Source: Synechococcus sp. UW140
Lineage (GTDB): Bacteria; Cyanobacteriota; Cyanobacteriia; PCC-6307; Cyanobiaceae
Direction of reading: 5' to 3'
NCBI GenBank assembly: GCA_943369595.1
Contig: CALRNU020000009.1
Location: 26,346-90,345, forward strand
Length of the DNA: 64,000 nt
The notes under the pieces are model-generated. The model worked only from the letters and a program-made list of their open reading frames with translations. It searched no databases and was not told the DNA's origin. This document shows, in pieces, positions 24,488-46,313 of this stretch (the stretch's first letter is position 1; each line of letters opens with the position of its first letter). The position numbers and the translations under genes were made by a program.

Positions 24488-25880
24488 GGGGTCGGGCCAT
24501 CTGGCTGGCGTCCACTGATTTGTCAAAGGCTTCGGCGCTGATGGCATCGAGGGCTAGGGCTGCCTCCCGCAGGCTTAGGCCTTCCTTATGGGCGTGGAGG
24601 GCGATTTTGGCGGCGCGGTCGTAGCCGATTACCGGGGCGAGCGCTGTCACCAGCATTAGGGATTGGTCCCTCAATTGTTCGATCTTGCGGTTATTCACCT
24701 GCATCCCCTCCACCAGGTGTTCCCGCAGGGAGTGGCAGCAGTCGGTGAGTAGGGCGCCGCTCTGCAGCAGGTTGAGCCCCAGCAGTGGTTTGTATACGTT
24801 CATTTGCAGGTGACCACCGCTGCCGCCGATGGCCACGGCCTGGTCGTAACCAATGATCTGGGCGGTGGCCATGGCCACGGCTTCGCATTGGGTGGGATTC
24901 ACTTTGCCGGGCATGATCGAGCTGCCTGGTTCATTGGCAGGCAGCAGCAATTCGCCAAGGCCAGCCCTGGGGCCGCAGGCCAGCAGGCGAATGTCATTAA
25001 CGATTTTGTGAAGGGCCCCGGCCAGTAGGCGCAGCCTGGCCATTTGCTGCACCAGGCCGTCGTGGCTGCCCATCAGGGCAAAACGGTTGCCGTCGCAGCG
25101 CCAGGTCACTCCATCCCATTCACTCAATAAACGGCAGGCCTCCTCGGCGAAGCCGGCCGGAGCCCCCAGGCCGGTGCCCACGGCGGTGCCCCCCAGGGGC
25201 AACATTCTTAGTTCTTCAAAACCGGCGGCGATCCGCTCCCCCGCAGTGGTTAGTTGGGCGGCCCAGCCCCCCAACTCCTGGCCAAGGCTGAGGGGCACGG
25301 CGTCCTGCAGGTGGGTGCGGCCGATTTTCACCACATCGCCCCAGAGGCTGGCCTTGGTTTCAAGGCTCAGCACTAGGGCCCGCAGGGCAGGCAGTAACTG
25401 CAGCCGTTGTTGGTGTTCGGCGGCGAGCTGGATGGCACTGGGGAAGACGTCGTTGGTGCTTTGGCTGCGATTTACATGGTCATTGGGGTGCACGGTGGCC
25501 TTTGAGCCCCTTGGCTGGCCTGCCAGTTCGCAGGCCCGGTTGGCGATCACCTCGTTGAGGTTCATGTTTGTTTGGGTGCCGCTGCCGCTCTGCCAGGTAG
25601 ACAAAGGAAATTCAGCATCGAGCTGGCCCTGCTCCACCTCCTCGGCCGCTTGGCTTATCCAGCGGCAGCGGTGGGCATCCAGTTGGCCAAGGCCGTGGTT
25701 GGCCAGGGCGGCGGCCCGTTTGATCCTGGCGATGCTATGGATGAGGGCCAGGGGCATGGGCTCCTGCCCCAGCCGGAACATCTGGCGGGCCCGCTCTGTT
25801 TGGGCTCCCCAGTAGCGATCAGCAGGAACGGACATCTCGCCAAGGCTGTCGGATTCGGTGCGGAAAGCCTGATCAACCAT
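24480..25880 (-). CDS. fumC: Fumarate hydratase, class II
   Basis: 466 aa with the fumarate lyase signature GSSIMPGKVNPTQCEA and overall FumC collinearity. Confidence 0.95.
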   Translation of the reverse strand: MVDQAFRTESDSLGEMSVPADRYWGAQTERARQMFRLGQEPMPLALIHSIARIKRAAALANHGLGQLDAHRCRWISQAAEEVEQGQLDAEFPLSTWQSGSGTQTNMNLNEVIANRACELAGQPRGSKATVHPNDHVNRSQSTNDVFPSAIQLAAEHQQRLQLLPALRALVLSLETKASLWGDVVKIGRTHLQDAVPLSLGQELGGWAAQLTTAGERIAAGFEELRMLPLGGTAVGTGLGAPAGFAEEACRLLSEWDGVTWRCDGNRFALMGSHDGLVQQMARLRLLAGALHKIVNDIRLLACGPRAGLGELLLPANEPGSSIMPGKVNPTQCEAVAMATAQIIGYDQAVAIGGSGGHLQMNVYKPLLGLNLLQSGALLTDCCHSLREHLVEGMQVNNRKIEQLRDQSLMLVTALAPVIGYDRAAKIALHAHKEGLSLREAALALDAISAEAFDKSVDASQMARPHG

Positions 25881-25962: not shown

Positions 25963-26463
25963 ATGCTCGAGCACTTGCTCCCCCCGCTAAACGACCACAA
26001 TTTGCCCTGGATGGATACCATCCATCCGATCGTGGTGCACTTTGTCATTGCGATGGCATTGATCACTGTTGTTTTTGATTTCATTGGGGCCGTCACTGGC
26101 CGCAGAAGCCTGTTTGAGGTGGGTTGGTGGAACCTGCTTTTTGCCACCGCGGCTATTTTTGTTGCAATTATTTTTGGACAGGTGGAGGCTGGCTTGGCAA
26201 ATCCCTATGGGGCTTCCCGAGAAATCCTCAACATTCACAGCACCATTGGTTGGTCTTTGGCCGGCATACTTTCTGTCCTTACCGGCTGGCGCTATGTGTT
26301 GCGCAGTCAAGATCCGTTGAACCTGCCCCTAGCTTTTCTTGGGGCTGATGCATTGTTGGCTGGCCTGGTGTTTCTGCAGGTATACCTTGGCGACAAGCTG
26401 ATCTGGATCTATGGCCTGCATACGGTCAAGGTGGTTTCAGCCATGCGGGAGGGCCTGCTGTGA
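25963..26463 (+). CDS. DUF2231-family integral membrane protein (copy 1)
   Basis: 166 aa with 4 predicted helices and IHPIVVHFVIAMALITVVFDF, typical of DUF2231. Its stop overlaps the start of the next gene (GTGA). Confidence 0.72.
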   Translation: MLEHLLPPLNDHNLPWMDTIHPIVVHFVIAMALITVVFDFIGAVTGRRSLFEVGWWNLLFATAAIFVAIIFGQVEAGLANPYGASREILNIHSTIGWSLAGILSVLTGWRYVLRSQDPLNLPLAFLGADALLAGLVFLQVYLGDKLIWIYGLHTVKVVSAMREGLL

Positions 26464-27098
26464 TTTCGCTGTTTATTTCTACATCTTTATTGAACTCTGA
26501 GAGCCCAATATTTCAGATTTCTAAGAGTTTGGGCGCCAATGAGCTTCCCTACAGCTTGCCAATCCACCCAAACCTGGTGCACTTAACCATAGGTTTGTTT
26601 GTTATAGCTATTGCCTTTGATTTTGCAGGGGCTTTTTACCCCCTTGAAAAACGGATTTTCCGTTTCCTTGCCCTACCGGTAACCCGGGCCGGTTTCCATG
26701 ATGTGGGTTGGTACAACCTGCTGGCCTGTGGGGTTATCAGCTTCTTCACCGTGGCGGCTGGTTTCTTCGAAATGCTTACGGCCGTCCCCCTGCCTGGGGT
26801 GATCAGCACCTTTGGTCTTGAGAGTTTCGCAACCATGCTTTGGCATGGGGTCGGTGGTGTTTTGATTTTATTTATGATCGTTCTGATGACCATTTGGAGG
26901 GGTTATCAACGCTTTGCTTGGCGTAAGGACATGGGTCGCCAGGTGCAATGGATTTATCTATTTGCTGGTGTTGTGATTATGGGCCTGCTTGCCTTGCATG
27001 GCACCTTGGGGGCTCAACTTGCCGCAGAGTTTGGTGTTCACATCACCGCAGACCAGCTCTTGGCTGCTGGTGCCAACCTTAAGGAGTCCCTGCCATGA
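26460..27098 (+). CDS. DUF2231-family integral membrane protein (copy 2)
   Basis: 212 aa. IHPNLVHLTIGLFVIAIAFDF parallels copy 1. GTG start. Its stop overlaps the ctaC start (ATGA). Confidence 0.68.
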   Translation: MISLFISTSLLNSESPIFQISKSLGANELPYSLPIHPNLVHLTIGLFVIAIAFDFAGAFYPLEKRIFRFLALPVTRAGFHDVGWYNLLACGVISFFTVAAGFFEMLTAVPLPGVISTFGLESFATMLWHGVGGVLILFMIVLMTIWRGYQRFAWRKDMGRQVQWIYLFAGVVIMGLLALHGTLGAQLAAEFGVHITADQLLAAGANLKESLP

Positions 27099-28030
27099 CA
27101 AGCTCCCCCAGCCGCATTAACTTCCCAGCCGTGGCAATCGTGAGCGCCTGGACAGGGGTGCTGGTGGTAATTAGTTTCTGGATGAGTCGCCAGGCGTACC
27201 ACTGGTTGCCGGTACAAGCCTCCACAGCTGCCCCATTGGTGGATGGATTATTCAGCTTCGAGACTGCCCTGGCCACCTTTGTGGTTTGTTGGGTGGTTTC
27301 GATTATCACCTGGGTGGTGCTGTTTAACAGGGCTGATAAATACGACATGAGTGATGCCGAGCCCATTGAAGGCAACATCCGTTTGGAAATTATCTGGACT
27401 GTGATTCCGGCACTTATTGTATTTGGCATCGCTTTCTATGCGGTGCGTGTCAACCAGCAATTGGCTGTGCTTGGTCCCATGGAGCACATTCACAGGGGAA
27501 GCCCCGTGGAAGAGGTGGGCGGTTATGTCGGTGATCGCTTACCTTCTGAAACCGTAGAGGTTATTGCTAGGCAGTGGTCTTGGGAGTTTCGATATCCCAA
27601 GGCCAATGTTAGTTCCACTGAGCTACATTTGCCCGTTGATAAGCCTGTCACCTTCAGGCTAGTTAGTGAGGATGTTATCCACGGTTTTTATGTACCTGCT
27701 TTTAGGCTGAAACAAGATATTATTCCTGGTCGGGCAATTGATTTCAATCTCACCCCCACCCGGGAGGGTCGCTATCGTTTGCGAGATTCTATGTATAGCG
27801 GCACCTGGTTTGCCACTAACCAGGCAGATGTAGTTGTCGAAAGTTCTAATGGTTTTCAGCATTGGTTAGAGCAGGCTGCCAGCCAGCCATTACAGCCTGG
27901 TCTTAGTGATGCCGTTCAGGAGTATGACCAGCGTCAGCAGGCCGGTGCCAAAGGTTGGGCCACGGTGCGTCCTGCCCCACGCCCCCAGGTGAATGTTCCC
28001 GGTTCCAATACCCTCCCGCACGAAGCCTGA
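27095..28030 (+). CDS. ctaC: Haem-copper oxidase subunit II lacking the CuA centre (ARTO / quinol-oxidase-like)
   Basis: Two N-terminal TM helices plus a cupredoxin domain (WSWEFRYP, VIHGFYVPAFRLKQDIIPG). At the CuA ligand positions H-x34-C-x-E-x-C-x3-H-x2-M, only the first His (H196) is kept. The others read D231, M233, S235, F239, N242. Confidence 0.85.
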   Translation: MTSSPSRINFPAVAIVSAWTGVLVVISFWMSRQAYHWLPVQASTAAPLVDGLFSFETALATFVVCWVVSIITWVVLFNRADKYDMSDAEPIEGNIRLEIIWTVIPALIVFGIAFYAVRVNQQLAVLGPMEHIHRGSPVEEVGGYVGDRLPSETVEVIARQWSWEFRYPKANVSSTELHLPVDKPVTFRLVSEDVIHGFYVPAFRLKQDIIPGRAIDFNLTPTREGRYRLRDSMYSGTWFATNQADVVVESSNGFQHWLEQAASQPLQPGLSDAVQEYDQRQQAGAKGWATVRPAPRPQVNVPGSNTLPHEA

Positions 28031-28034
28031 TCCC

Positions 28035-29726
28035 ATGACCACCGCCCCTTTTGATCCCCGTGTCCTCAAGTCCAATGCTCCGGTACCCGGGGCCCCAGAC
28101 AATTGGAAGCGCTTTTTTAGTTTCAACACCGACGCCAAGGTGATTGGGATTCAGTACATCTCTGTTGCAATCTTTTTTCTCTTAGTTGGCGGCCTCTTGG
28201 CCATGATTATGCGGGGCGAGTTGATTACCCCGGAGAACGATCTGGTTGATCGCACTGTATACAATGGTCTTTACACCATGCACGGCACAATTATGCTGTT
28301 CATGTTTATTTTCCCAATCTTAAATGGCCTTAATAATCTATTAATTCCCACGATGATTGGGGCCCCAGACATGGCCTTTCCCAGGCTTAATGCGGTGGCC
28401 TTCTGGATGGTGCCAGTCTTTGGATTCATCCTAATGGCCAGCTTTATTCTGCCCGGCGGCCCTGCTAATTCCGGTTGGTGGTCCTACCCACCGGTTAGCA
28501 CCCAGAACCCCTTGGGGCATTTAATTAGTGGTGAAAGCATGTGGCTGTTGGCGGTTGCCCTTTCTGGGGTTTCTTCGATCATAGGTGCCCTTAATTTCGT
28601 TACCACTATCATTCGAATGCGGGCGCCGGGAATGACATTCTTTCGGATGCCAATATTTATTTGGACAGTTTGGGCCGCCCAAACCCTTCAGTTAATCGGC
28701 TTGCCTGCCCTCACCGGTGGGGCAATTATGTTGTTGTTTGATCTAGTTGTTGGTACAAGTTTTTTCCAGCCAGAGGGCGGCGGAGATCCCGTTCTTTACC
28801 AGCATTTTTTCTGGTTTTATTCCCACCCAGCTGTTTATGTGATAATTTTGCCAGTATTTGGAATATTTTCTGAGCTATTTAGCGCCCACTCTCGTAAGCC
28901 TTTGTTTGGTTATTTGTTCGTTGCATTGGCTTCATTCGCGATCGTATTTTTAGGTCTGATTGTTTGGGTTCACCATTTCTTCCCCAGTGGCGTTCCTGAA
29001 TGGATGAGGAATTTATTTATGGTTACCACCATGTTGATTTCTGTACCCACAGGGGTGAAAGTTTTCGCTTGGCTGGCAACCATATGGGGCGGGAAAATCC
29101 AGTTAAATACACCTATGCTTTTTTGCTTAGGCGGCCTGTTTAACTTTGTTTTTGCCGGTGTCACTGGCATAATGTTGGCTACGGTTCCCATAGATATCCA
29201 TGTAAATAACACCTATTTTGTGGTGGGTCATTTTCACTACGTAATTTATGGCGCCGCAGTGATGGGAATATTTGCCGCCATTTATCATTGGTTCTCCAAG
29301 TTTACCGGCAGAATGTACTATGAGGGCCTTGGTAAGCTGCATTTTGCCCTCACTTTTATTGGATCCAATCTTAATTTCTTTCCCATGCACCCCCTCGGTC
29401 TCATGGGGATGCCCCGTCGCGTCTCTTCCTATGACCCAGAATTTACCTTCTGGAATGTGGTTGCAAGCCTGGGCAGCTTTTTGCTTGGGGTATCGATTAT
29501 TCCCTTCCTACTCAATATGATTAGTTCCTGGGTGAGGGGTCCGAAGGCCCCTCAAAACCCTTGGCAGGCCATTGGCCTGGAGTGGCTTTTGCCATCACCG
29601 CCACCAGCTGAGAACTTTGAAGAAAATGTTCCCACCGTCATTAGTGGTCCCTATGGCTATGGCACCGGCAAGCCCCTGGTTGAAAATCAGGCGGCCTATG
29701 AAAATCAGCAATTCCAGGAGGTCTAA
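28035..29726 (+). CDS. ctaD: Haem-copper oxidase subunit I (A2-type)
   Basis: ATG at 28035. Canonical subunit I blocks (GAPDMAFPRLN, WFYSHPAVYVIILP, VGHFHYV). YSHPAV in place of GHPEV marks the A2 subtype. Confidence 0.95.
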   Translation: MTTAPFDPRVLKSNAPVPGAPDNWKRFFSFNTDAKVIGIQYISVAIFFLLVGGLLAMIMRGELITPENDLVDRTVYNGLYTMHGTIMLFMFIFPILNGLNNLLIPTMIGAPDMAFPRLNAVAFWMVPVFGFILMASFILPGGPANSGWWSYPPVSTQNPLGHLISGESMWLLAVALSGVSSIIGALNFVTTIIRMRAPGMTFFRMPIFIWTVWAAQTLQLIGLPALTGGAIMLLFDLVVGTSFFQPEGGGDPVLYQHFFWFYSHPAVYVIILPVFGIFSELFSAHSRKPLFGYLFVALASFAIVFLGLIVWVHHFFPSGVPEWMRNLFMVTTMLISVPTGVKVFAWLATIWGGKIQLNTPMLFCLGGLFNFVFAGVTGIMLATVPIDIHVNNTYFVVGHFHYVIYGAAVMGIFAAIYHWFSKFTGRMYYEGLGKLHFALTFIGSNLNFFPMHPLGLMGMPRRVSSYDPEFTFWNVVASLGSFLLGVSIIPFLLNMISSWVRGPKAPQNPWQAIGLEWLLPSPPPAENFEENVPTVISGPYGYGTGKPLVENQAAYENQQFQEV

Positions 29727-29729
29727 ACC

Positions 29730-30338
29730 ATGACCAGTGCGCTGCCCTCCCCAGACCATGGCCAAGGCTCTGCCGCTGCCCATGGCATGCATGCAAAACA
29801 TAATCTCACCGGCTTCATAATTTTTCTGTGCTCAGAAAGCGTCATCTTTCTGGCATTTTTCTCTGGCTACGCCATGCTCAAGCTTGGCGCCCTTGATTGG
29901 CTCCCTGCCGGAGTGGAGGGATTGGAATGGCAAACGCCACTAATAAACACTATTGTGCTGGTTTCCAGCTCTGGCACTATCTACCTGGCTGAGCGGGAAA
30001 TGGGTCGCCAAAATATTTGGGGATTTAGAGCTTGGTGGTTAGTTACTATGGCCTTGGGAGCTTATTTTCTCTGGGGCCAGGCTGTTGAGTGGAGCGGGCT
30101 CAAGTTTGGCTTCACCTCTGGCACTTTTGGTGGAACCTTTTATCTACTTACTGGTTTCCACGGCTTACATGTGCTCACTGGAGTTGTGTTGATGGCATTG
30201 ATGCTAGGTAAGTCATTTATTACTGATAATTACAAGGGAGGGGAGCAGGGGGTGCAGGCCACCTCTCTGTTTTGGCACTTTGTGGATGTGATTTGGATCA
30301 TCCTCTTTGTGCTTCTTTACGTATGGCAACGTTCCTGA
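29730..30338 (+). CDS. ctaE: Haem-copper oxidase subunit III
   Basis: 202 aa with GFHGLHVLTGV and LFWHFVDVIWI motifs. Starts 3 nt after ctaD. Confidence 0.9.
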   Translation: MTSALPSPDHGQGSAAAHGMHAKHNLTGFIIFLCSESVIFLAFFSGYAMLKLGALDWLPAGVEGLEWQTPLINTIVLVSSSGTIYLAEREMGRQNIWGFRAWWLVTMALGAYFLWGQAVEWSGLKFGFTSGTFGGTFYLLTGFHGLHVLTGVVLMALMLGKSFITDNYKGGEQGVQATSLFWHFVDVIWIILFVLLYVWQRS

Positions 30339-30347
30339 GCTGATCCC

Positions 30348-31862
30348 ATGATCATCGACGACAAGCATTATGACGTGATCATCATTGGCAGCGGTGCTGC
30401 CGGTGGCACCCTGGCAGGCAGCCTGGCGGGTAAGGGCCACAAGGTGCTTTTGCTTGATCGGGGTGGGCAAATGGCCCTGGCTGATCAAAATGTGGCCGAT
30501 GTGGATTTATTCCGCAAGGATCGATATCACCCCCCCGAGCGTTGGTTTGGTCCCGATGGTGATCCCTTCCCCCCCCAGTGCATCTATGGACTGGGGGGAA
30601 ATACCAAGATCTGGGGGGCGGTATTAGAGCGCCTGCGGGAAAAGGATTTTGGCGCTCTTCACCTACGGGAAGGGATCTCCCCCTCCTGGGAGCTTAACTA
30701 TGCCGATTATTCCCCCTATTACGACCGGGCGGAAGCGCTGTACCAGGTCCATGGCAAGGGCGGAGTTGATCCCACAGAGCCAAAGCGCAGCGAAGAATTT
30801 GCCCGGCCACCAAAACCGCTGGAGTCATTTCTTGAACCTTTGCGGGAAGCTCTGCAACGTAATGGCTGTAATCCCTATGACTTACCACTGAGCTGGTCAG
30901 ATTCAAAGGAAGATCCCAGTGGCGATGCCGAGATCTATGGGGTGGCTCCGGCCCTGCGTGATCCAGCTGTGCACCTGCGCACCCATGCAAAAGTTACCCG
31001 TTTGCATGTGAACCCAGCTGGCACCGAGATAAAGGCCGTAGAGGCAGACCTGCAGGGTCAAACCTGGTTATTTAGTGGTGATCTGGTAGTACTCGCTGCG
31101 GGCAGTGTAAATACGGCTGCAATCCTGCTGCGGTCTAGTAATGATAGTCATCCCAGGGGCCTGAGTAATGGCTCTGATCAGGTTGGTCGCAATCTGATGA
31201 AGTTGCAACTTACCTCAATTCTGCAGTTGGCTAGCGTGCCTAATTCTGGTCGCTACGCTCGCTCTTTTGGGGTCAATGACTTTTATTGGGGCGATAAAAA
31301 CGTGAGTTTTCCCCTGGGGCATATACAAAGCTGTGGGGGGGTATTGCAGGATGCTCTTTTCGCAGAATCACCACCAGTACTTTCTTTGGTGTCAAAATTA
31401 ATGCCTAACTTTGGCCTTGAGGAGCTAGCCTCCCGCTCGGTGGCTTGGTGGGCAATGACAGAGGTTTTGCCGGATCCCCATAATAAAATCTTTTTACAGG
31501 GCGATCAGATTAGAATAAATTACATTGCTAATAATCGGGAAGCCCATGATCGATTGGTATATCGCTGGATAGATACCCTTAAGGCCGTGGAGGCAGATCC
31601 CCTCACCCATGTGGTGCGAACAGCCCCCACCCACCCTCGGGGAGAAGCCCCCATAAGTGTTATGGGCTATGCCTGTGGCACCTGCAAAATGGGCAGCAAT
31701 CCGGCAACTTCTGTTGTGGATCTGAACGGAAGGAGCCATGAAATTCAGAATCTTTATGTGGCAGATGCCAGTGTTTTCCCCAGTTGTCCGAGTATCGGTC
31801 CAGGTCTCACTGTAATTGCCAATGCCCTGCGCATAAGCGACCACCTGGAGCAGATTCTCTAA
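30348..31862 (+). CDS. GMC-family FAD-dependent oxidoreductase (copy 1)
   Basis: N-terminal Rossmann motif DVIIIGSGAAGG. C-terminal GMC block CGTCKMG...VVDLNGRSHEIQNLYVADASVFPS. No signal peptide. Starts 9 nt after ctaE. Confidence 0.88.
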   Translation: MIIDDKHYDVIIIGSGAAGGTLAGSLAGKGHKVLLLDRGGQMALADQNVADVDLFRKDRYHPPERWFGPDGDPFPPQCIYGLGGNTKIWGAVLERLREKDFGALHLREGISPSWELNYADYSPYYDRAEALYQVHGKGGVDPTEPKRSEEFARPPKPLESFLEPLREALQRNGCNPYDLPLSWSDSKEDPSGDAEIYGVAPALRDPAVHLRTHAKVTRLHVNPAGTEIKAVEADLQGQTWLFSGDLVVLAAGSVNTAAILLRSSNDSHPRGLSNGSDQVGRNLMKLQLTSILQLASVPNSGRYARSFGVNDFYWGDKNVSFPLGHIQSCGGVLQDALFAESPPVLSLVSKLMPNFGLEELASRSVAWWAMTEVLPDPHNKIFLQGDQIRINYIANNREAHDRLVYRWIDTLKAVEADPLTHVVRTAPTHPRGEAPISVMGYACGTCKMGSNPATSVVDLNGRSHEIQNLYVADASVFPSCPSIGPGLTVIANALRISDHLEQIL

Positions 31863-31863
31863 A

Positions 31864-34542: not shown

Positions 34543-34597
34543 CTCCTGATTCAGCGTCCATTCTTTTCATTCTGCATACACAAACTGAGGATCTTCC

Positions 34598-36148
34598 ATG
34601 GACAGCCATTACGAAGTTGTAATTATCGGCAGTGGTGCCGGTGGTGGATCTTTGGCCAGGGCCCTAGTGGAAGCCGGCCGCAAGGTACTTGTGCTGGAAA
34701 GGGGGGACTGGCTACCAAGGGAGCCTCAAAATTGGGATCCTGTGGAGGTATTTCAGAAAAATCGCTATGTTTCAGCTGATACCTGGAAGGATAAAGCTGG
34801 AAAGAGCTTCCAGCCTGGTAGTCATTATTTTGTGGGAGGTGCTTCCAAGCTGTATGGGGCGGCCCACTTTCGGCTTAGGGAACGGGATTTTGAACAGGTA
34901 GTTCATGTGGATGGCATCTCGCCCGAATGGCCCCTGCGGTACAGCGATTTTGAACCCTATTACGGCCGTGCCGAAGCTTGGTACCACGTTCACGGCCTGC
35001 GCGGAGAGGATCCTACGGAACCCCCTTCCAGTGGCCCCTATCCCCATCCTCCCATCGCCCACGAGCCGAGGATGCAACAACTTGTTGATGGATTGCGTGC
35101 CTCTGGGTTGCATCCTTTTCACGCCCCCACGGGTGTAAATCTGAATGAGGCAGATATGGCTTTCAGCGCCTGCGTGCGCTGTAACCGCTGTGACGGATTT
35201 CCCTGTTTAGTCCATGCCAAAGGCGATGCGGAGGTGATGGGGATTCGCCCGGCTTTGCTTCAGCCCACGATGACACTCCTTACCCGAGCCCATGTGCTCC
35301 GTTTGATTACCGATGATAGCGGCAGGGTGGTGAAGGAGGTGCTTGTGGAGCGTGATGGTGAACAGCTGCGTTTCAGTGGCGATGTGGTGGTGGTTAGTTG
35401 TGGGGCAGCCAATTCGGCCCGTTTGTTATTGATGTCTGCCAATGACAAGCATCCCAAGGGTTTGGCAAATAGCTCTGATCAGGTAGGCCGCAACTACATG
35501 TATCACAATTGCAAAGCAGTTGTCGCCCTTTCCCATGAGACAAATCCCACTGTCTTTCAGAAAACGGTGGCACTTAATGATTGGTATTTTGGTGATAATG
35601 ATTTTGATTTCCCAATCGGTAATATTCAAATGACGGGTAAGACCAATGGCGCGATGATGAAAGGATATAAACCCAAGCTCACTGCGCTGGCCCCCGGTTG
35701 GACCATGGATCGCCTGGCTGAGCGCTCCTTGGATTTCTGGTTGCAAACTGAAGATTTACCAAGGCCTGATAATCGTGTTTCTGTTGATTCAAAGGGTCAG
35801 ATTACTCTCAGTTATACATCCACTAACGATCGTGCTTCCAACGAGTTGATGGGGCGCTTGGAGCGAGTACTGGATAAATTGTATCAACAGGATCACATAG
35901 CAGAACGTCAAATCTACTTTGCTTCTGACATGGCAATTGCTGCCGTTGGCCATCAAGCAGGTACCTGTCGTTTTGGTACTGATCCCAAGAGTTCAGTCTT
36001 AGACGTGAACTGTAAAGCCCATGATCTTGATAACCTTTATGTTGTTGATACTAGTTTCTTCCCTAGTATTGGCGCTGTGAATCCCTCGCTAACGGCCGTG
36101 GCTAACTCCATTCGTGTGGCTGATCACCTGGTTGAAAGACTCTCTTAG
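34598..36148 (+). CDS. GMC-family FAD-dependent oxidoreductase (copy 2)
   Basis: EVVIIGSGAGGG and C-terminal AGTCRFG...VLDVNCKAHDLDNLYVVDTSFFPS. Collinear with copy 1 but strongly diverged. Confidence 0.88.
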   Translation: MDSHYEVVIIGSGAGGGSLARALVEAGRKVLVLERGDWLPREPQNWDPVEVFQKNRYVSADTWKDKAGKSFQPGSHYFVGGASKLYGAAHFRLRERDFEQVVHVDGISPEWPLRYSDFEPYYGRAEAWYHVHGLRGEDPTEPPSSGPYPHPPIAHEPRMQQLVDGLRASGLHPFHAPTGVNLNEADMAFSACVRCNRCDGFPCLVHAKGDAEVMGIRPALLQPTMTLLTRAHVLRLITDDSGRVVKEVLVERDGEQLRFSGDVVVVSCGAANSARLLLMSANDKHPKGLANSSDQVGRNYMYHNCKAVVALSHETNPTVFQKTVALNDWYFGDNDFDFPIGNIQMTGKTNGAMMKGYKPKLTALAPGWTMDRLAERSLDFWLQTEDLPRPDNRVSVDSKGQITLSYTSTNDRASNELMGRLERVLDKLYQQDHIAERQIYFASDMAIAAVGHQAGTCRFGTDPKSSVLDVNCKAHDLDNLYVVDTSFFPSIGAVNPSLTAVANSIRVADHLVERLS

Positions 36149-36204
36149 CTTTTGTAATTGTTTTATGAGTAGGTCAGTTTATTCCCTTTCTCTAATTTCC
36201 CCCA

Positions 36205-38892
36205 ATGCCGTTTTCAGCTCTTTCTAAAACAATTGAGAGTATTCGCCTACGTGAGCGGGATCGTGGCGAGGTGGATTGGGGACTTTGGGGTACATATCTG
36301 CCAGATCGACAGTGGGGCACTGTCAGAGAAGATTACTCTTCTAATGGGGATGCCTGGAGATCATTCCCCCATGATCACGCCCGCTCTAGGACCTATCGTT
36401 GGGGTGAAGATGGTTTACTCGGTATAACTGATCGTAATTGCTTGCTCTGTTTTGCTCCCTCATTTTGGAATGGCAAGGATCCGATCCTAAAGGAACGTTT
36501 TTTTGGCCTAGGCAATCACGAAGGGAACCATGGTGAAGATGTTAAGGAGTTGTATTACCATTTAGTTAATACCCCCACCCATAGTTATTCAAAAGCTCTT
36601 TATATATATCCGCAGACTGCATTCCCCTATGGCGATTTGGTTAAAAGTAATGCCGCCCTTAGCCGTGCCGATGCTGATTATGATATTGAAGATACTGGAG
36701 CTTTAGCTGGAGGTCGCTATTTTAAATGTTTTGTTGAATATGCCAAGGATTTTGCCGAAGATATTTTAGTACGGATCACCGTGGTGAATTGCGGGCCTGA
36801 TTCCGCTGATATTAGTGTCATTCCTACCCTATGGCTTCGCAACACCTGGAGTTGGGGGTATCCGGCTATCTCGCGTCAGCCGATTCGAGCCAATGATCAT
36901 CATTCTTTAATTACCCCTGCCCTTGATAAGCTTTCTGCGTACAATTTCTACTGTGACCAGAATCAGCAGTGGATGTTTACTGAGAATGAATCAAATAACC
37001 AGCTTTTGTTTGATCAGCCTAATGCTGCTTTGCATACCAAGGATGCTTTTCACCGTTATATAATTAACGGAGATTCCTCTGCAGTTAATCCTGATCGCGA
37101 AGGTACGAAGGTTGGCATGCTTTGTCAGCGTGAGTTGGATTCTGGTGAATCTTGGACTATCAAGTGCCGTTTAAGTAAAGATTCTAAAGCTAATCCTTTT
37201 AACTCGGGCTTTGATGTTGTCTTCCAGCAGCGTGAAGATGAAGCTCATCTGTTTTACGATTCTTACGTTCTTAAGTATCCCGACAATAATGATCTACGTA
37301 TTTTTAAGGCTTCTTCGGCTGGTTTGCTTTGGACTCGTAAATTTTATGCTTTTAATATTTATCGTTGGCTAAAGGGTGACCCTGGTTACCACGCTCCTAA
37401 TCCGTCTCGTTGGCAAACTGATTATGCAAAATGGAAGTATTTTGATGCCCATGATATTTTTAGCATGCCAGATGGTTGGGAATATCCTTATTTCTGTAAA
37501 TGGGATTTAATGTTCCATGCCGTGGCATTCGCAGATTTGGACCCTGCTTTTGCTAAAAATCAATGTAATATCCTACGTAGCCAACGTTTTGTCGCCCCAA
37601 ATGCCCAGGTGCCAGCCTATGAGTGGGCATTCTCAGATGTTGACCCACCCTTGGGAGCATGGGCGTCTTGGCAAACCTATGTAATTGATAGAAATGCCAC
37701 CGGCACTGCCGATAAACTCTTTCTTCAAGAATCTTTTAGCACCCTGTTGATTGAGTATGGCTGGTGGGCCAATCGTAACGACCGAACTGGTAGTAATTTA
37801 TTTGATGGTGGTTTTCTTGGTCTAGATAATATTTCACCATTTGACCGGCGTTTTCCATTGCCTGATGGGTCTGTTATCGAACAAGCAGATGGTACTGCTT
37901 GGATGGCACGCTCTGCCTTGTATATGCTCAAAATTTCCGTAGAACTAGCTGAATCTAATAATGATAGTTCGGAGTTGGTGCATCGTTTCGCCAGTGACTT
38001 TACCCATCTTGTTGCCTCCATGAATAGTGGATTTGGCAAGGGTTATCTTAATTGGGATCCTGATGATCATTTTTATTATGATATTTTGCGTCGACCTGAT
38101 GGTTCGACGCAGCACATTAAGGTGCGCTCTCTTACCGGTGTTATTCCGCTCCTTGCTGTTCAATCCTTTAGCGAAGAGCTTGTGCAGAGTTTCTCTGCCT
38201 TGGATTTAGATAAAAAATTACGCGATTATCTGTCATTGCATGGTATTGATGATTACTCTATCAGTTTGAATCATCTTGGCAAATGGGGCACTGGTCGCCA
38301 CCTATTTGCAGTAGCTTCTCCATTCAAGCTCCAAAAAATATGCCAATGGTTATTTGATGAATCTGAGTTCCTTTCGGAATTTGGCATTCGAGCTCTCTCA
38401 AAATATTATGAGCATAATCCCTATGAAATTAGTGTTGCAGGCGAAACCTACCGTATTCAATATGCCCCAGGTGAGAGCCCAGTCCCCATGTTTGGAGGAA
38501 ACTCTAACTGGCGCGGTCCAATTTGGATACCAATTAATTATTTGCTTATTGTTGCTTTCCGAGAGTATCATAGGGCCTTGGGCGATGAATATTTGCTTGA
38601 GTTCCCAAGTTATTCCGGCAAATTTATGAACCTTAGTGATATTGCTGATGAGCTTGAGCGCAGGATACTGTCAATATTTAAGCCAAGAGCTGATGGTTCT
38701 CGACCCTTCTCGCCTACGGGTACCTTCCTGGATAGTGATAGATCTCTGTCGGATGTATATCTATTTCACGAGTACTTTCATGGGGATACAGGCGAGGGGG
38801 TCGGAGCTAGCCATCAAACTGGTTGGACTGCCATGGTTCGTCGCATGGTTTTAGATTTAAATAAAAATTCTATTCAATCTAACGGAGTCTAA
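36205..38892 (+). CDS. GH63-like (alpha/alpha)6-barrel glycoside hydrolase, ~890-aa putative glucosidase (copy 2)
   Basis: 895 aa, collinear with copy 1 and sharing long identical blocks (RQWGTVREDYS, FPHDHARSRTYRWGEDGLLGI, GNHGED, WEYPYFC.WDLMFH, EYGWWANRNDR, GGFLGLDNI, FGGNSNWRGP.W.PINYLLI). Confidence 0.7.
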   Translation: MPFSALSKTIESIRLRERDRGEVDWGLWGTYLPDRQWGTVREDYSSNGDAWRSFPHDHARSRTYRWGEDGLLGITDRNCLLCFAPSFWNGKDPILKERFFGLGNHEGNHGEDVKELYYHLVNTPTHSYSKALYIYPQTAFPYGDLVKSNAALSRADADYDIEDTGALAGGRYFKCFVEYAKDFAEDILVRITVVNCGPDSADISVIPTLWLRNTWSWGYPAISRQPIRANDHHSLITPALDKLSAYNFYCDQNQQWMFTENESNNQLLFDQPNAALHTKDAFHRYIINGDSSAVNPDREGTKVGMLCQRELDSGESWTIKCRLSKDSKANPFNSGFDVVFQQREDEAHLFYDSYVLKYPDNNDLRIFKASSAGLLWTRKFYAFNIYRWLKGDPGYHAPNPSRWQTDYAKWKYFDAHDIFSMPDGWEYPYFCKWDLMFHAVAFADLDPAFAKNQCNILRSQRFVAPNAQVPAYEWAFSDVDPPLGAWASWQTYVIDRNATGTADKLFLQESFSTLLIEYGWWANRNDRTGSNLFDGGFLGLDNISPFDRRFPLPDGSVIEQADGTAWMARSALYMLKISVELAESNNDSSELVHRFASDFTHLVASMNSGFGKGYLNWDPDDHFYYDILRRPDGSTQHIKVRSLTGVIPLLAVQSFSEELVQSFSALDLDKKLRDYLSLHGIDDYSISLNHLGKWGTGRHLFAVASPFKLQKICQWLFDESEFLSEFGIRALSKYYEHNPYEISVAGETYRIQYAPGESPVPMFGGNSNWRGPIWIPINYLLIVAFREYHRALGDEYLLEFPSYSGKFMNLSDIADELERRILSIFKPRADGSRPFSPTGTFLDSDRSLSDVYLFHEYFHGDTGEGVGASHQTGWTAMVRRMVLDLNKNSIQSNGV

Positions 38893-38896
38893 TCTC

Positions 38897-39370
38897 ATGT
38901 TAAATCTCTCTAGTGTTAGTGTCGAGAAGGCCAGTGGATCTTTTCAACTGCTAGACGAATTAAGAGGTTCAGTCCTCTTGATTGTGAATGTAGCCAGTGA
39001 ATGCCATTTTACCGGTCAATATCATGCCTTAAGGCAGCTTGATCTTCTTTATGGCCCCAGGGGGCTTCGTATATTGGCATTCCCATGTAATGATTTTGGC
39101 AATCAAGAGCCATTGCCAATTTTAGAGATTCAGAGATATGTTGATAACTCTTTTCGTTTGCCCTTTAAGCTTTATGCAAAAGTTAATATTTTGACTAATA
39201 AATCAGCCCCTTATGATCTTTTGACTGCCCCGCCGGCTCCCCAAATTAAATGGAACTTTGAAAAGTTTCTTGTAGATAGAAAACTCAACGTTGTTGCCCA
39301 TTTTGATACGTCAATCGCGCCCCAGCACCCGGATTTAACAGGAAGAATCGAGCAGCTCTTAATGGAGTAG
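38897..39370 (+). CDS. gpx: Glutathione peroxidase (Cys-type)
   Basis: NVASECHFTG (Cys codon TGC at 39002-39004), FPCNDFGNQEP, WNFEKFLVDR. Starts 4 nt after the second GH63-like gene. Confidence 0.85.
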   Translation: MLNLSSVSVEKASGSFQLLDELRGSVLLIVNVASECHFTGQYHALRQLDLLYGPRGLRILAFPCNDFGNQEPLPILEIQRYVDNSFRLPFKLYAKVNILTNKSAPYDLLTAPPAPQIKWNFEKFLVDRKLNVVAHFDTSIAPQHPDLTGRIEQLLME

Positions 39371-39488
39371 AATTGCTATTGTTTTTCTTTTGGTTATTTT
39401 ATGACCACAACGGTCGCTGTGTTAGTTGTAATTTTATAGTATCATTATAAGTCTTTATTTTTGTTTTTAGCTTCTTTTTTTTGCACCC

Positions 39489-40652: not shown

Positions 40653-40724
40653 TATCTGCATAGCGTCACACGCTGCCAGTTTTTCTGGGCTTGAGGGGAT
40701 AATGAATTACTTGTTTTTCAAAAA

Positions 40725-41693: not shown

Positions 41694-42200
41694 TTAGGTT
41701 CCCAGATTGATAAGTAGTGGCTTCAAAATACTAATATCTATCGAATATGCGCCACCACCGCAGGTGATCAAAACTAATGCCATTACAACATAAAGAAGTG
41801 CTTTCTCCCAACTTGGCGGATCCCCAACTCCCATGGGGCCGGCATAATCACCTTTCGGGATTTGAAAGGGATCTGGCGCTATGAAAGGGAATCCCTTGGA
41901 TATTTCTAGCACTATGGCATAAGCCATTGAAAAGAGGATCCCCAGGGATGCCGCACCGCTGAAAACTCCTGGCACAAGGGCTATGCCCCCTAGCCACATA
42001 GAGTAAGCAGATAGTCCACAAAGAATGGTTGGGGTATTCATAGCCTTAGCCCAGGTGCTTAGGTATCTAACTTTGGGCCAGCCATGGCGGATGAATGCCA
42101 CTGCCATAGTGAGCCTTAGCACTAAAAGGCCGGAGGATGAGATAGCAGTTGCTGATTCTGGGAACAGCAGTTCTGCGAAGGTCGCGGAATCCATTGGCAA
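41694..42200 (-). CDS. DoxX-family membrane protein
   Basis: 168 aa with 4 hydrophobic helices. LLVLRLTMAVAFIRHGWPK is a DoxX-like N-terminal motif. Confidence 0.7.
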   Translation of the reverse strand: MPMDSATFAELLFPESATAISSSGLLVLRLTMAVAFIRHGWPKVRYLSTWAKAMNTPTILCGLSAYSMWLGGIALVPGVFSGAASLGILFSMAYAIVLEISKGFPFIAPDPFQIPKGDYAGPMGVGDPPSWEKALLYVVMALVLITCGGGAYSIDISILKPLLINLGT

Positions 42201-45023: not shown

Positions 45024-45099
45024 TCTTTTTAGGCAAGCAATCACCCAGCAATTTCTGCCTTGCTTTTGTAATCGATTTTCTTTTTTTAGATTTGTAGCT

Positions 45100-46071: not shown

Positions 46072-46313
46072 GCTCTGGTCGTTCTCCGGCTGGTTCTTAG
46101 CGGCAGAGTTCTGACCTGTCCTCACCTTGGGTGGAAAAAGGGCCGCAGCTTACCCAGCGCACCACATGGATTTCCACGTCTGTGAAGGCCACCAGTGCTC
46201 CAACCACGATGGCCCCAACGCCTAAGAGGATGGTCCAGGTTTTTGTTTGGTTGCCCAAGCTCAGATGTTCTGCTGGGGGAACCTTAGGCAATGCTCTGGC
46301 CCCCTGGCCCCCA

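Follow-up and report, generated by a model that had tools for sequence, protein, structure and literature searches.

The ten co-directional genes of this freshwater cluster-5 picocyanobacterium lie in a low-GC island of 20 kb and are made up of three evolutionary modules, set one after the other. Module A is a cyanobacterial ARTO operon with a GMC flavoprotein gene, module B is formed by a GH63-like glycosidase gene (GH63a), an Fe-S flavoprotein gene (GMC2) and a VOC/glyoxalase gene farther downstream, and module C is an insertion that carries a second GH63-like gene and a peroxidase gene. The fusion of an ARTO operon to a separately conserved glucosidase/flavoprotein module hints at a private sugar-to-oxygen electron route. 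We put the probability of this reading, three modules with sugar electrons passing through GMC2 and plastoquinone to the ARTO, at about one half. Coordinates are those of the window, the whole 64,000-nt stretch of DNA that was analysed.

The gene array and its island

The following features define the island and its borders:

24480-25880, minus strand: fumarase C gene, bordering the island on its left flank
25900-46100, no strand: low-GC island of ~20 kb, GC 0.42-0.55
39371-39488, no strand: AT-rich spacer of 118 nt, directly 3' of gpx
46097-46438, minus strand: unannotated ORF on the right flank
46314-46946, minus strand: dethiobiotin-synthase-like gene, beyond the right-flank ORF

The initial annotation had described ten co-directional genes with operon-like spacing, and an ORF check of the window returned the same ten plus-strand ORFs (25963-39370) and the same junctions. 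DUF2231a/DUF2231b and DUF2231b/ctaC2 overlap by 4 nt each. The gaps that follow are 4 nt between ctaC2 and ctaD2 (if ctaD2 starts at 28035; the longest ORF would start at 27993), 3 nt between ctaD2 and ctaE2, 9 nt between ctaE2 and GMC1, 1 nt between GMC1 and GH63a, 55 nt between GH63a and GMC2, 56 nt between GMC2 and GH63b and 4 nt between GH63b and gpx. The intergenic gaps of the cluster hold no terminator-like site, and promoter-like sites are not in excess there. From this spacing, the cluster is presumed to be co-transcribed. The 118-nt spacer is likely to mark the end of the co-directional array of cytoplasmic genes, and the genes downstream of it encode exported proteins. No signal peptide was found in any GMC, GH63 or Gpx protein of the cluster.

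All ten genes gave the expected Pfam labels above the curated cut-offs (DUF2231 twice, COX2_TM/COX2, COX1, COX3, GMC_oxred_N/C twice, MGH1-like_GH plus Glyco_hydro_63 twice, and GSHPx). Every gene of the cluster is under purifying selection (dN/dS 0.005-0.125) and the gene order recurs in independent genomes, so the arrangement is not due to chance. The low-GC block, which went unremarked in the initial annotation, encloses the whole cluster, from ~25.9 to 46.1 kb, with a GC of 0.42-0.52 versus 0.60-0.67 in the flanks, and the GC discontinuity is also present at the loci L001, L004 and L005. No tRNA was found, and the island borders carry no repeats.

The ARTO operon and its flavoprotein

Module A (25963-31862) consists of six genes:

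25963-26463, plus strand: DUF2231a, opening gene of the ARTO unit, membrane protein of 166 aa (Pfam PF09990, E 1e-36)
26460-27098, plus strand: DUF2231b, membrane protein of 212 aa (PF09990), a 30%-identical paralogue of DUF2231a
27095-28030, plus strand: ctaC2, CuA-less subunit II of the haem-copper oxidase (COX2_TM and COX2)
28035-29726, plus strand: ctaD2, subunit I, A2-type (COX1, E 1e-152)
29730-30338, plus strand: ctaE2, subunit III (COX3, E 1e-31)
30348-31862, plus strand: GMC1, FAD flavoprotein, last gene of the module (GMC_oxred_N/C)

The assignment to a CuA-less, ARTO-type oxidase is borne out by subunit II, in which five of the six CuA ligands are substituted. The six positions are occupied by H, D, M, S, F and N: only the first His (H196) is kept, and none of the other five ligands (Cys, Glu, Cys, His, Met) remains. 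Subunit I is intact. All of its motifs were found (TMHGT, PDMAFPR, FYSHPAVY, VHHFF, TGVKVF and GHFHY), no haem or CuB ligand is missing, the channel residues and the cross-linked Tyr are likewise kept, and its dN/dS is 0.005-0.014. The DUF2231 proteins each have four conserved histidines, H21, H26, H92 and H153 in DUF2231a (each kept by 95% or more of the 63 orthologues) and H36, H41, H129 and H194 in DUF2231b. GMC1 (dN/dS 0.04-0.05) has its Fe-S loop deleted, and in picocyanobacteria its catalytic His is changed to Tyr or Phe and its Asn to Gly; here the residues are Tyr and Gly. With the canonical pair gone, picocyanobacterial GMC1 is unlikely to act as a sugar dehydrogenase.

A GMC1-based search yielded 80 loci. 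In every locus that extends at least 0.7 kb upstream of GMC1, ctaE lies there on the same strand, 36/36 in picocyanobacteria and 34/34 in other cyanobacteria (70/70 informative loci), and all five genes, including DUF2231a before ctaC, precede GMC1 in 56 of the 59 loci with at least 4.6 kb. The suggested link between a GMC flavoprotein and the oxidase thus holds throughout cyanobacteria.

The same unit is recognizable in known ARTO clusters (ctaCII-DII-EII; Anabaena cox3/qox; Pro-eCAG_016/Syn-eCAG_015 of Dore et al. 2023), which share the three subunits, the CuA-less subunit II, the intact subunit I, two small membrane-protein genes in front, a “choline dehydrogenase-like flavoprotein” behind and a location in a genomic island. 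The Anabaena ARTO was described with its two upstream ORFs as the operon alr2729-alr2730-coxB3-A3-C3 (PMC6616624). The supplement of Dore et al. groups the two DUF2231 genes, ctaC2D2E2 and the flavoprotein into one gene cluster; according to one table row, the flavoprotein belongs to it in 30 of 32 DUF2231-bearing marine Synechococcus strains. Their account of the cluster places it in a genomic island and discusses an iron-related role (PMC10119275). The ARTO-flavoprotein linkage is therefore already catalogued, without interpretation, in marine datasets, and the published ARTO accounts that were found discuss the function of neither the flavoprotein nor the DUF2231 pair. The remark that no such system was known is thus partly outdated. 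Unlike the known clusters, the window and related Cyanobium-type genomes continue straight into GH63-like and Fe-S GMC genes, and the clade of the window adds a second GH63-like gene and gpx.

The glycosidase and Fe-S flavoprotein module

Module B comprises three genes:

31864-34542, plus strand: GH63a, cytoplasmic GH63-like glycosidase of 892 aa (MGH1-like_GH and Glyco_hydro_63)
34598-36148, plus strand: GMC2, dehydrogenase with FAD and Fe-S, of the same type as glucose/fructose dehydrogenase catalytic subunits (PDB matches and motifs)
42238-43203, minus strand: two-domain VOC/glyoxalase-family protein, third member of the trio

The GH63-like identity stands at the level of the fold: the best structural match of an AF2 model of GH63a (pLDDT 64) is GH63 alpha-glucosidase I. 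GH63 enzymes (alpha-glucosidase I, 4J5T/7T6W; E. coli YgjK, 3W7S) and MGH1-like mannosyl/glucosylglycerate hydrolases share with it the N-terminal beta-sandwich and (alpha/alpha) barrel, the WRGP(V/I)W C-terminal signature and the (E)-x-(Y/F)...G-x-G-A-x-H-x-TGW(T) motif. However, identity is only ~13% in structural alignments and the protein is ~890 aa long and cytoplasmic. Sequence searches of the PDB gave E about 1e-4, which is distant from all characterised enzymes, so that “alpha-glucosidase” is a family-level guess. The GH63-like protein is probably not the product of gmgG (glucosyl(mannosyl)glycerate glucosidase), for the GH63-like gene is frequent among freshwater isolates, from which an annotated gmgG is reportedly absent. 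GghA/Slr1670 was ruled out, being of the GHL5 type.

GMC2 is best matched in the PDB by the FAD-glucose dehydrogenase alpha subunit (8hdd/6a2u, E 5e-37) and the large subunit of fructose dehydrogenase (7w2j, E 1e-29). The Burkholderia cepacia alpha-beta-gamma glucose dehydrogenase (6A2U) and the Gluconobacter fructose dehydrogenase (7W2J) feed ubiquinone and a quinol oxidase. GMC2 aligns with their catalytic subunits over its full length, with C192, C198 and C203 on the three 3Fe-4S ligands and the catalytic His and Asn kept, and it too sits beside a quinol-type oxidase. These features place GMC2 with the Fe-S flavoprotein dehydrogenases that, in other bacteria, pass electrons to quinone. In contrast to these complexes, identity is low at the E-value given above, the loop has a fourth cysteine, C195 (C-x2-C-x2-C-x4-C), and GMC2 comes without a cytochrome c subunit, a small TAT-signal subunit or an export signal and is thus cytoplasmic; GMC1 lacks both the cluster loop and the catalytic pair. 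The cluster likewise provides no membrane anchor for GMC2. These missing parts count against the electron route proposed below.

The trio recurs in Acidobacteriota and Verrucomicrobiota. GMC2, VOC and GH63 lie on one strand in 13/41 non-cyanobacterial loci, none of the 13 having lost the Cys loop, the His or the Asn, and the VOC gene is upstream of GH63 in 20/57. No PDB relative of the VOC protein was found. In the marine Cyanobium NAT70, GH63 followed by GMC2 makes a separate, free-standing two-gene unit, and GH63 is paired with a GMC2-type gene there as it is in soil bacteria. Since GMC1 lacks the Fe-S loop, His and Asn that GMC2 keeps, the two GMC/GH63 pairs of the initial annotation have to be redrawn as ARTO with GMC1 and GH63 with GMC2.

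Joining of the modules

Fusion of modules A and B, often with 4-nt overlaps, is confined to freshwater and brackish picocyanobacteria; GMC1 and GH63 overlap by 4 nt at L002 and L086, against the 1-nt gap in the window. The prediction that the oxidase operon would recur beside GMC and GH63 genes holds for these organisms but fails elsewhere, as GH63 follows GMC1 in 0/31 cyanobacterial loci outside the picocyanobacteria and an oxidase accompanies GH63 in 0/75 non-cyanobacterial ones. Neither module therefore requires the other. In marine strains, they are ~9 kb apart, separated by unrelated mixed-strand genes that include an amidohydrolase, a SulP transporter and a Na/Ca exchanger. Picocyanobacterial A and B remain within ~10 kb of each other despite rearrangements.

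Module C and other island genes

The right part of the island contains the following genes:

36205-38892, plus strand: GH63b, second GH63-like paralogue and first gene of module C, 51% identical to GH63a
38897-39370, plus strand: gpx, Cys-type glutathione-peroxidase-like thiol peroxidase (GSHPx, E 1e-24)
39489-40652, plus strand: MRJP/yellow-like beta-propeller protein with export signal, module C
40725-41621, plus strand: putative lipoprotein of 298 aa with export signal, module C
41694-42200, minus strand: DoxX-family membrane protein
43200-44078, minus strand: EamA-family transporter
44247-45023, plus strand: SDR (NCBIfam “glucose 1-dehydrogenase” subfamily NF005559, 228 bits versus a cut-off of 215)
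44983-46071, plus strand: SMP-30/gluconolactonase-like beta-propeller

Module C is found in this clade and on one further low-GC contig only, its four genes being present at L001, L004, L005 and L088 and nowhere else; no gpx occurs in the remaining ARTO loci. The module has the lowest GC of the island. Its dS to L004 is 0.70-1.46 (0.91 for GH63b) versus 0.18-0.38 for the genes upstream, with an identity breakpoint at ~36.1 kb (36.0-36.2). Gpx carries the motifs NVASEC, FPCNDFGNQEP and WNFEKFLV. Its restriction, along with that of GH63b, means that the peroxidase is not a conserved part of any system.

The DoxX gene adjoins GMC2 in other picocyanobacteria (L002, L003, L028 and L084); here, it is on the strand opposite to GMC2 and 5.5 kb away. 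The protein presumably resembles the DoxX family of the Acidianus thiosulfate:quinone oxidoreductase DoxDA. In both, a DoxX-family membrane protein has a redox enzyme beside it and a terminal oxidase close by, but the likeness here consists of a Pfam match (E 1e-7) and the gene is on the opposite strand. DoxX was absent at the thresholds used from non-cyanobacterial GMC2-VOC-GH63 loci.

The true start of the gluconolactonase-like protein is probably a Met at ~45100, which would give it a Sec signal peptide. An exported protein of this kind clashes with a cytoplasmic glucose-to-gluconolactone step.

A possible electron route and its alternatives

In this lineage, a route from sugar through plastoquinone to ARTO is plausible. 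GH63a and GH63b would release sugar from an intracellular alpha-glucoside, and GMC2 would oxidise that sugar or the glycoside itself. Plastoquinone at the cytoplasmic membrane would receive the electrons through the Fe-S cluster of GMC2, possibly via the adjacent DoxX protein, and ARTO would reoxidise the plastoquinol with O2. Gpx would be a local add-on against peroxides. The coupling of B to A would lie in co-transcription and the shared quinone pool and would need no obligatory complex. Gene content, cofactor motifs, module borders and phyletic distribution are direct results, whereas we infer the substrates, the electron path and whatever GMC1, the DUF2231 pair and DoxX may do. The self-contained glycoside-to-oxidase branch proposed originally is thus partly supported, by the quinone-feeding type of GMC2 and the abutment of A and B, but the oxidase/GH63 link is lineage-restricted.

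In its strong form, that proposal was of a dedicated ten-gene system with two equivalent GMC/GH63 pairs, its own oxidase and a peroxidase that removes leaked H2O2. The tight spacing of all ten genes, the purifying selection on both GH63 paralogues and both GMC genes and the retention of the entire array at L001, L004, L005 and L088 speak for it. However, the distribution data contradict it, GH63b and gpx being limited to one small clade and having a separate history. The GMC proteins are not equivalent, and the pairing is a different one. Fe-S-bearing GMC dehydrogenases of the FAD-GDH and FDH type use electron acceptors other than O2, so no H2O2 leakage is expected from GMC2. The strong form is largely refuted and very improbable. 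An oxidative 3-keto route is somewhat less improbable, though still doubtful. Here, GMC2 would oxidise the intact glucoside as a glycoside 3-dehydrogenase, the GH63-like protein would cleave the 3-keto-glycoside, the VOC protein would process the keto-sugar and ARTO would be an electron sink only. The trio of dehydrogenase, VOC-fold protein and glycosidase across phyla suggests a three-step chemistry over plain hydrolysis, the GH63-like family stands well apart from typical GH63 enzymes, and GMC2 resembles the FAD-GDH/sorbitol dehydrogenase group, to which FAD glycoside 3-dehydrogenases are related. Yet no sequence feature examined distinguishes C1 from C3 regiochemistry, the cluster lacks the sugar-isomerase-type lyase of known 3-keto pathways, and a literature search gave no paper tying GH63 to GMC or 3-keto chemistry.

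The more serious competitor to the plastoquinone route, possible but clearly behind it, is that a flexible genomic island simply carries the ARTO unit, the GH63/GMC2/VOC module and the GH63b-gpx insertion as cargo, with no functional tie among them. In that case, ARTO would be a general plastoquinol oxidase or act in Fe(III) reduction, and the sugar module would catabolise a storage compound or compatible solute with any acceptor. The independence of the modules (B is missing beside A in 31/31 non-picocyanobacterial cyanobacterial loci, and an oxidase beside B in 75/75 from other phyla), their ~9-kb separation in marine strains, the low-GC mosaic with its differing divergence histories and the island location given and iron-related role discussed for the ARTO cluster by Dore et al. 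(PMC10119275) are all in line with this. Against it, the closeness of A and B and their stop/start codon overlap in Cyanobium-type lineages exceed a random neighbourhood, and GMC2 is an enzyme of a type that feeds respiratory quinone, the substrate of a CuA-less oxidase.

The gene array

The best-supported reading of the array is a lineage-specific fusion of two working modules. One is built around an alternative terminal oxidase (ARTO) without CuA, the other around a GH63-like protein and a GMC flavoprotein, and both lie in a low-GC island with the following genes:

25963-31862, + strand: DUF2231a, DUF2231b, ctaC2, ctaD2, ctaE2 and GMC1
31864-34542, + strand: GH63a, GH63-like protein
34598-36148, + strand: GMC2, GMC flavoprotein
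36205-38892, + strand: GH63b, GH63-like protein
38897-39370, + strand: gpx, glutathione peroxidase
39489-41621: exported MRJP-like propeller protein and putative lipoprotein (hyp298)
41694-42200, - strand: DoxX-family gene
42238-43203, - strand: VOC gene
44247-45023, + strand: SDR
44983-46071, + strand: SMP-30/gluconolactonase-like gene

Re-reading confirmed the ten plus-strand ORFs from DUF2231a to gpx where the initial annotation had placed them, with two 4-nt overlaps, gaps of 4, 3, 9, 1, 55, 56 and 4 nt and an AT-rich 118-nt spacer 3' of gpx. The 4-nt gap between ctaC and ctaD presupposes a ctaD start at 28035, whereas the longest ORF begins at 27993. All of the gene labels were backed by Pfam, each above its curated cut-off: two DUF2231 proteins, COX2_TM/COX2, COX1 (E = 1e-152), COX3, two GMC oxidoreductases, two MGH1-like/GH63 proteins of ~890 aa each, and GSHPx. 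Purifying selection is strong on all ten genes, and also on the two genes for exported proteins at 39489-41621, with dN/dS values of 0.005-0.125 against two related loci. Terminator-like sites were found in none of the intergenic gaps of the array, promoter-like and terminator-like sites were no more frequent than in shuffled sequence, and between 24.0 and 47.5 kb every Rfam family stayed below its gathering score. With ten genes on one strand, joined by overlaps or gaps of at most 56 nt, the spacing and the missing terminators would allow a single transcript from DUF2231a to gpx, a permissive observation only.

The oxidase unit

The proposal that subunit II lacks CuA holds. In CtaC2, direct reading leaves H196 as the sole CuA ligand, and the other five of the six positions (Cys/Glu/Cys/His/Met) are substituted by Asp/Met/Ser/Phe/Asn. 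CtaD2 is intact, with all six His ligands of haem a/b and the haem-CuB centre, the cross-linked Tyr of HPAVY, a K-channel Lys and a D-channel Asp (motifs TMHGT, HPAVY, VHHFF and GHFHY), and is A2-type because it has a Tyr-Ser (YS) motif. A ctaD gene 67-84% identical to it, in the same gene order, occurs in Synechococcus WH7803, WH8017 and MIT S9503/S9507, in HNLC Prochlorococcus, and also in Leptolyngbya, Chroococcidiopsis and others. The oxidase is ARTO, and the front six genes are an already-known system whose gene list matches the dataset of Dore et al. 2023 (PMC10119275); to that extent, the view that no such system had been described does not stand.

In that dataset, 85% of the marine Synechococcus reference genomes carry ctaC2-D2-E2, as do low-iron Prochlorococcus, and the genes are sited in a genomic island; an electron-sink or Fe(III)-reduction role is discussed (PMC10119275). 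Published accounts put the role of ARTO only tentatively, with a minimal respiratory chain as a further suggestion. A supplementary table places two DUF2231 genes, ctaC2, ctaD2, ctaE2, a “choline dehydrogenase-like flavoprotein” and a hypothetical protein in one environmental gene cluster, and, as far as one strain row of that table goes, the flavoprotein lies within the same cluster in 30 of the 32 strains that have a DUF2231 gene. The main text treats neither the flavoprotein nor the DUF2231 pair. The ARTO-GMC1 partnership is one that has been catalogued before, but not studied, and the open-access literature yielded nothing relevant on ARTO with GMC or on DUF2231 with cyanobacteria. The Anabaena ARTO operon reads alr2729-alr2730-coxB3-coxA3-coxC3, with two extra ORFs upstream (PMC6616624). 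These stand ahead of coxB3 as the two DUF2231 genes stand ahead of ctaC here, a likeness by position alone.

A scan with GMC1, limited to one genome per species, gave 80 loci, each of which was scored by tblastn with 17 window proteins. The loci were collected via GMC1 and not via the CuA-less ctaC2, so the counts describe ARTO genes given GMC1 and not the reverse. At every locus with at least 0.7 kb of upstream DNA, the GMC1 orthologue is preceded by ctaE in the same orientation (36 of 36 picocyanobacterial and 34 of 34 other cyanobacterial loci), at a distance of less than 400 bp in 60 of these 70. Where 4.6 kb or more is available upstream, DUF2231a, DUF2231b, ctaC, ctaD and ctaE all precede GMC1 in the same order at 56 of 59 loci. 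Among the taxa are marine Synechococcus (WH7803, WH8017, MIT S9503/S9507/S1220) and HNLC Prochlorococcus, as well as Chamaesiphon, Thermosynechococcaceae, Oculatella, Leptolyngbya, Chroococcidiopsis, Phormidium, Mastigocoleus and Pleurocapsales. Since ctaE is upstream of GMC1 in every informative locus, GMC1 belongs to the oxidase unit. The two GMC/GH63 pairs of the initial annotation therefore had to be given up: GMC1 goes with the oxidase, and GH63 pairs with GMC2.

At seven loci (L016, L027, L035, L073, L076, L078 and L082), 1.3-4.3 kb is inserted between ctaE and the GMC1 orthologue. The insert in Mastigocoleus (L078) codes for a KAP-family P-loop NTPase.

Two divergent GMC flavoproteins

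GMC1 and GMC2 are 38% identical. The best matches of both are the catalytic subunits of Burkholderia FAD-glucose dehydrogenase and Gluconobacter fructose dehydrogenase, enzymes that carry a 3Fe-4S cluster and supply the respiratory chain. Both window proteins have an N-terminal FAD fold of the GxGxxG kind and a GMC C-terminal domain above the Pfam cut-offs, and the FAD motif GSGAGGG is kept in all orthologues.

Table. Features of GMC2 and GMC1.
Feature; GMC2; GMC1
Fe-S loop; C-x2-C-x2-C-x4-C, with C192/C198/C203 on the 6A2U ligands C212/C218/C222 and the fourth Cys extra; 20-residue deletion at the site of the GMC2 Cys loop
Catalytic His (H-x-x-G-T motif); kept; Tyr in the window protein, Tyr/Phe in picocyanobacterial orthologues, mostly His and some Asn in other cyanobacteria
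Partner Asn; kept; Gly in picocyanobacteria, Ser in other cyanobacteria
dN/dS; 0.018-0.022; 0.04-0.05

The loop deletion is common to all GMC1 orthologues except that of L077. With the FAD motif kept, the loop, His and Asn changed and the gene conserved, GMC1 is therefore a conserved FAD-binding, non-canonical GMC protein; judged by these residues, it is probably not a sugar dehydrogenase. GMC2 differs from the FAD-glucose and fructose dehydrogenase complexes in that its FAD motif is right at the start of the protein, whereas the complexes are periplasmic and have cytochrome c and small TAT-signal subunits. No Pfam domains of either kind of subunit were found between 23 and 47 kb.

At L077 (10001-11545), from an uncultured cyanobacterium, the GMC protein after ctaE retains the Cys loop (CIRCHTCDGFPC) and scores nearer to GMC2. 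It may be an intermediate, pointing to descent of GMC1 from an Fe-S-bearing ancestor. The GMC1 of HNLC Prochlorococcus has a short leftover of the Cys loop (INFENCS).

The DUF2231 proteins each have four near-invariant His residues. An AF2 model made from a two-sequence alignment was poor (pLDDT 54, pTM 0.47), and a profile search of 1.8 billion representatives returned 217 matches, mostly fragments. Two distant relatives (P0447 and P0501) have a heavy-metal-binding domain, HMBD (PF19335), fused at the C-terminus, and one of them has a marginal match to prokaryotic cytochrome b561 (E = 0.0099). The fusion and the b561 match are suggestive of a metal or redox role for the family, but not decisive.

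GMC1 and the DUF2231 pair might be the electron-input subunits of ARTO, with a bound FAD flavoprotein that acts via His-ligated metal or haem sites in DUF2231 in place of cytochrome c or free plastoquinol, although we consider this unlikely. CuA would then have been lost because ARTO draws electrons from a bound flavoprotein on the cytoplasmic side. Consistent with such an input are the persistence of the six genes together across the phylum in the GMC1-based scan, the four near-invariant His of each DUF2231 protein and the strong purifying selection on all six genes, including GMC1, which has lost its catalytic residues and kept its FAD motif. If true, ARTO would be a novel type of substrate:O2 oxidoreductase supercomplex that was later, in picocyanobacteria, extended by a sugar-supplying module. 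We know of no direct proof of ARTO's electron donor, and a GMC flavoprotein and two His-rich membrane proteins that travel with ARTO phylum-wide are concrete candidates for study.

The GH63-GMC2 module

The GH63-like proteins match PF03200 and PF22422 above the cut-offs. GH63a itself has no exact protein record, and a 99% identical relative (P0001) was used as a stand-in. An AlphaFold model of the GH63-like protein (pTM 0.71, pLDDT 64) has an N-terminal beta-sandwich and an (alpha/alpha) barrel. Its top Foldseek matches are GH63 processing alpha-glucosidase I (E = 5e-12 to 1e-10, TM 0.43-0.51), with E. coli YgjK ranking lower. Sequence and profile searches of the PDB matched only the GH63 C-terminal motifs (E ~1e-4). 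The motifs GFLGLDN and FNEYFHGD are invariant in 24 of 24 family members; in alignment to a solved GH63, only the C-terminal motif is matched. By these comparisons, the family is far from characterised enzymes. The protein has no signal peptide, and its substrate is therefore expected to be intracellular.

Two identities were considered for the GH63-like protein. The glucosylglycerol hydrolase GghA/Slr1670 was rejected, as GghA is a GHL5-type enzyme of another family. Cyanorak gmgG, a glucosyl(mannosyl)glycerate glucosidase, is unlikely on distribution: it is reportedly absent from all freshwater isolates, where the GH63-like gene is common.

In the marine Cyanobium NAT70, a GH63-like gene followed by GMC2 forms a free-standing unit ~9 kb upstream of the DUF2231-ARTO unit; the genes after this pair code for DoxX, a VOC/glyoxalase protein, an SDR, an SGL protein and others. 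The same pairing is found far outside the cyanobacteria. With GH63b as query, a metagenome scan picked up 75 non-cyanobacterial loci that are 42-50% identical. A VOC gene lies upstream of the GH63-like gene in 20 of the 57 with at least 1 kb of upstream sequence. Of the 41 that extend 3 kb or more upstream, 13 have both a GMC2-type gene (50-54% identical) and a VOC gene ahead of the GH63-like gene on its strand. The trio, whose VOC/glyoxalase protein has two domains, was found on contigs L100, L104, L111, L113, L118, L125, L127, L130, L132, L133, L138, L142, L147, L159 and L160; two of the loci are assigned by their source names, to Pyrinomonadaceae (Acidobacteriota) and to Verrucomicrobiae/Binatia. 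The GMC2-type proteins of these non-cyanobacterial trios all keep the Cys loop, His and Asn, and none has a signal peptide. Neighbouring genes include an SMP-30/gluconolactonase-like gene, a glycogen-debranching-type GDE and a type-II NADH dehydrogenase. As the trio recurs without an oxidase in other phyla, GMC2-VOC-GH63 is an old module that is independent of any oxidase, and the window has all three members: GH63a, GMC2 and the VOC gene.

Some smaller features of the module were also seen. The GDE gene sometimes lies between the VOC and GH63 genes (L113). About 60 residues N-terminal to the catalytic His, the soil GMC2-type proteins (L100-L160) have an additional motif rich in Cys and His (e.g. 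QTKCGVHGHECHEGLF), a possible extra metal site that is missing in cyanobacterial GMC2. A PDB search gave no match for the VOC protein. Four marine Synechococcus loci (L007, L011, L018 and L032) have a GH63-like gene, at 59-66% identity to GH63a, that runs in the same direction as DUF2231a and stops ~4 kb upstream of it. The intervening DNA of L007 codes for an amidohydrolase, a SulP transporter and a Na/Ca exchanger, and no GMC2 comes after the GH63-like gene of that locus.

Fusion or juxtaposition

The recurrence of the oxidase next to GH63-like genes, raised as a check by the initial annotation, holds for some picocyanobacteria but does not extend beyond them. A GH63-like gene is directly downstream of GMC1 in only 4 of 29 picocyanobacterial scan loci, and in L001-L003; it is downstream in 0 of 31 other cyanobacterial loci, and no oxidase or DUF2231 gene was present at any of the 75 non-cyanobacterial GH63-like loci. 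Synechococcus CBW1004 and Cyanobium Aljojuca have the order ARTO-GMC1-GH63-GMC2, with a 4-nt overlap between GMC1 and GH63. Nothing relevant linking GH63 with GMC was found in the open-access literature, which also seems to contain no description of ARTO fused to a GH63/Fe-S-GMC module or of the GMC2-VOC-GH63 trio that spans phyla.

If the fused modules work together, GH63a and GH63b would release a sugar from a cytoplasmic alpha-glucoside, and GMC2 would oxidise the sugar or glycoside and pass the electrons via its Fe-S cluster to plastoquinone, perhaps through DoxX. The plastoquinol would then be reoxidised by ARTO. The main rival is a simple juxtaposition of modules in a flexible island. 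Against the route from sugar to ARTO are the separate occurrence of both modules elsewhere, the lack of a partner subunit or membrane anchor for GMC2 in the cluster and the apparent export of the lactonase-like protein. A lineage-specific fusion of two working modules is nevertheless the reading preferred here. The initial annotation, which proposed that a glycoside could feed a dedicated oxidase branch, is supported in part, because this core idea is kept while the gene pairs are reassigned and the peroxidase is dropped as a component.

In one lineage, a glycosidase and a predicted Fe-S sugar dehydrogenase have been joined onto the ARTO gene array. The trio, shared by Acidobacteriota, Verrucomicrobiota and cyanobacteria, represents a widespread, uncharacterised sugar module. 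Picocyanobacteria are major primary producers in freshwater and marine environments, and a sugar-to-O2 route at the cytoplasmic membrane, if true, would bear on their dark survival and on their disposal of excess reductant.

By its NCBIfam score, the SDR lies above the subfamily cut-off for “glucose 1-dehydrogenase”. Only with an upstream TTG start does the SMP-30/gluconolactonase-like ORF overlap it, by 41 nt. From an internal Met at ~45100, the ORF has a typical Sec signal peptide (MKFFSHLLLALFVFSGSAVIAAEQ), and the protein is therefore probably periplasmic, which weakens a route from glucose via gluconolactone to gluconate through this neighbour.

The low-GC island and the probable GH63b-gpx insertion

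Cluster-5 picocyanobacteria (Cyanobium, Synechococcus and Vulcanococcus) are by far the main source of homologues of the genes. Closest among the records is an ENA metagenome scaffold (L001, 99% nucleotide identity), followed by a river MAG (L004, 91%) and a MAG labelled Synechococcus lacustris (L005, 85%). A 20-kb block from ~25.9 to 46.1 kb has a GC content of 0.42-0.55 between flanks of 0.60-0.67. It is bordered at one end by fumarase C and at the other by a short unannotated ORF, after which comes a dethiobiotin-synthase-like gene. The same discontinuity is seen in L001, L004 and L005. There was no tRNA and no border repeat at the island, and no Pfam integrase or transposase domain in the ORFs scanned from 23 to 47 kb. 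Because the equivalent genes are at host-genome GC in other Cyanobium genomes, base composition suggests that the block was acquired as a whole from a lower-GC picocyanobacterium; L088, with a GC of 0.42 throughout, may be an example of such a lineage.

The flanks of L005 are at 0.61-0.66 GC. The S. lacustris group has ~52-53% GC (Cabello-Yeves et al. 2022), a mismatch that points to a loosely applied label or to a contig unlike the rest of its genome.

GH63b, which is 51% identical to GH63a, occurs together with gpx, the MRJP-like propeller and the lipoprotein gene only in L001, L004, L005 and the low-GC contig L088, and this stretch has the lowest GC within the island. At ~36.0-36.2 kb, the junction of GMC2 and GH63b, nucleotide identity to L004 falls from 0.91-0.99 to 0.81-0.85, and dS (synonymous divergence) rises from 0.18-0.38 upstream to 0.70-1.46 for GH63b, gpx, MRJP and hyp298. 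This is read as a mosaic breakpoint, with the stretch from GH63b to the lipoprotein gene a putative separate insertion between GMC2 and DoxX.

Gpx keeps the catalytic Cys/Sec-Gln-Trp-Asn tetrad (motifs NVASEC, GNQEP and WNF) and scores 86 bits for GSHPx against a cut-off of 27. It is found only in this type of insertion and is not a conserved partner of the ARTO unit or of the GH63/GMC2 module, which removes the peroxidase from the proposed system. L001 has ~100 extra bases at 17249-17350 (window ~39058-39112), with a ~55-nt duplication within gpx; the gene is split by this, and no gpx is called in that 99%-identical scaffold. The split could be an assembly artefact or a real disruption. Between 33.0 and 35.0 kb, identity to L004 reaches 98-99%, above that of the surrounding DNA, which may reflect recent recombination.
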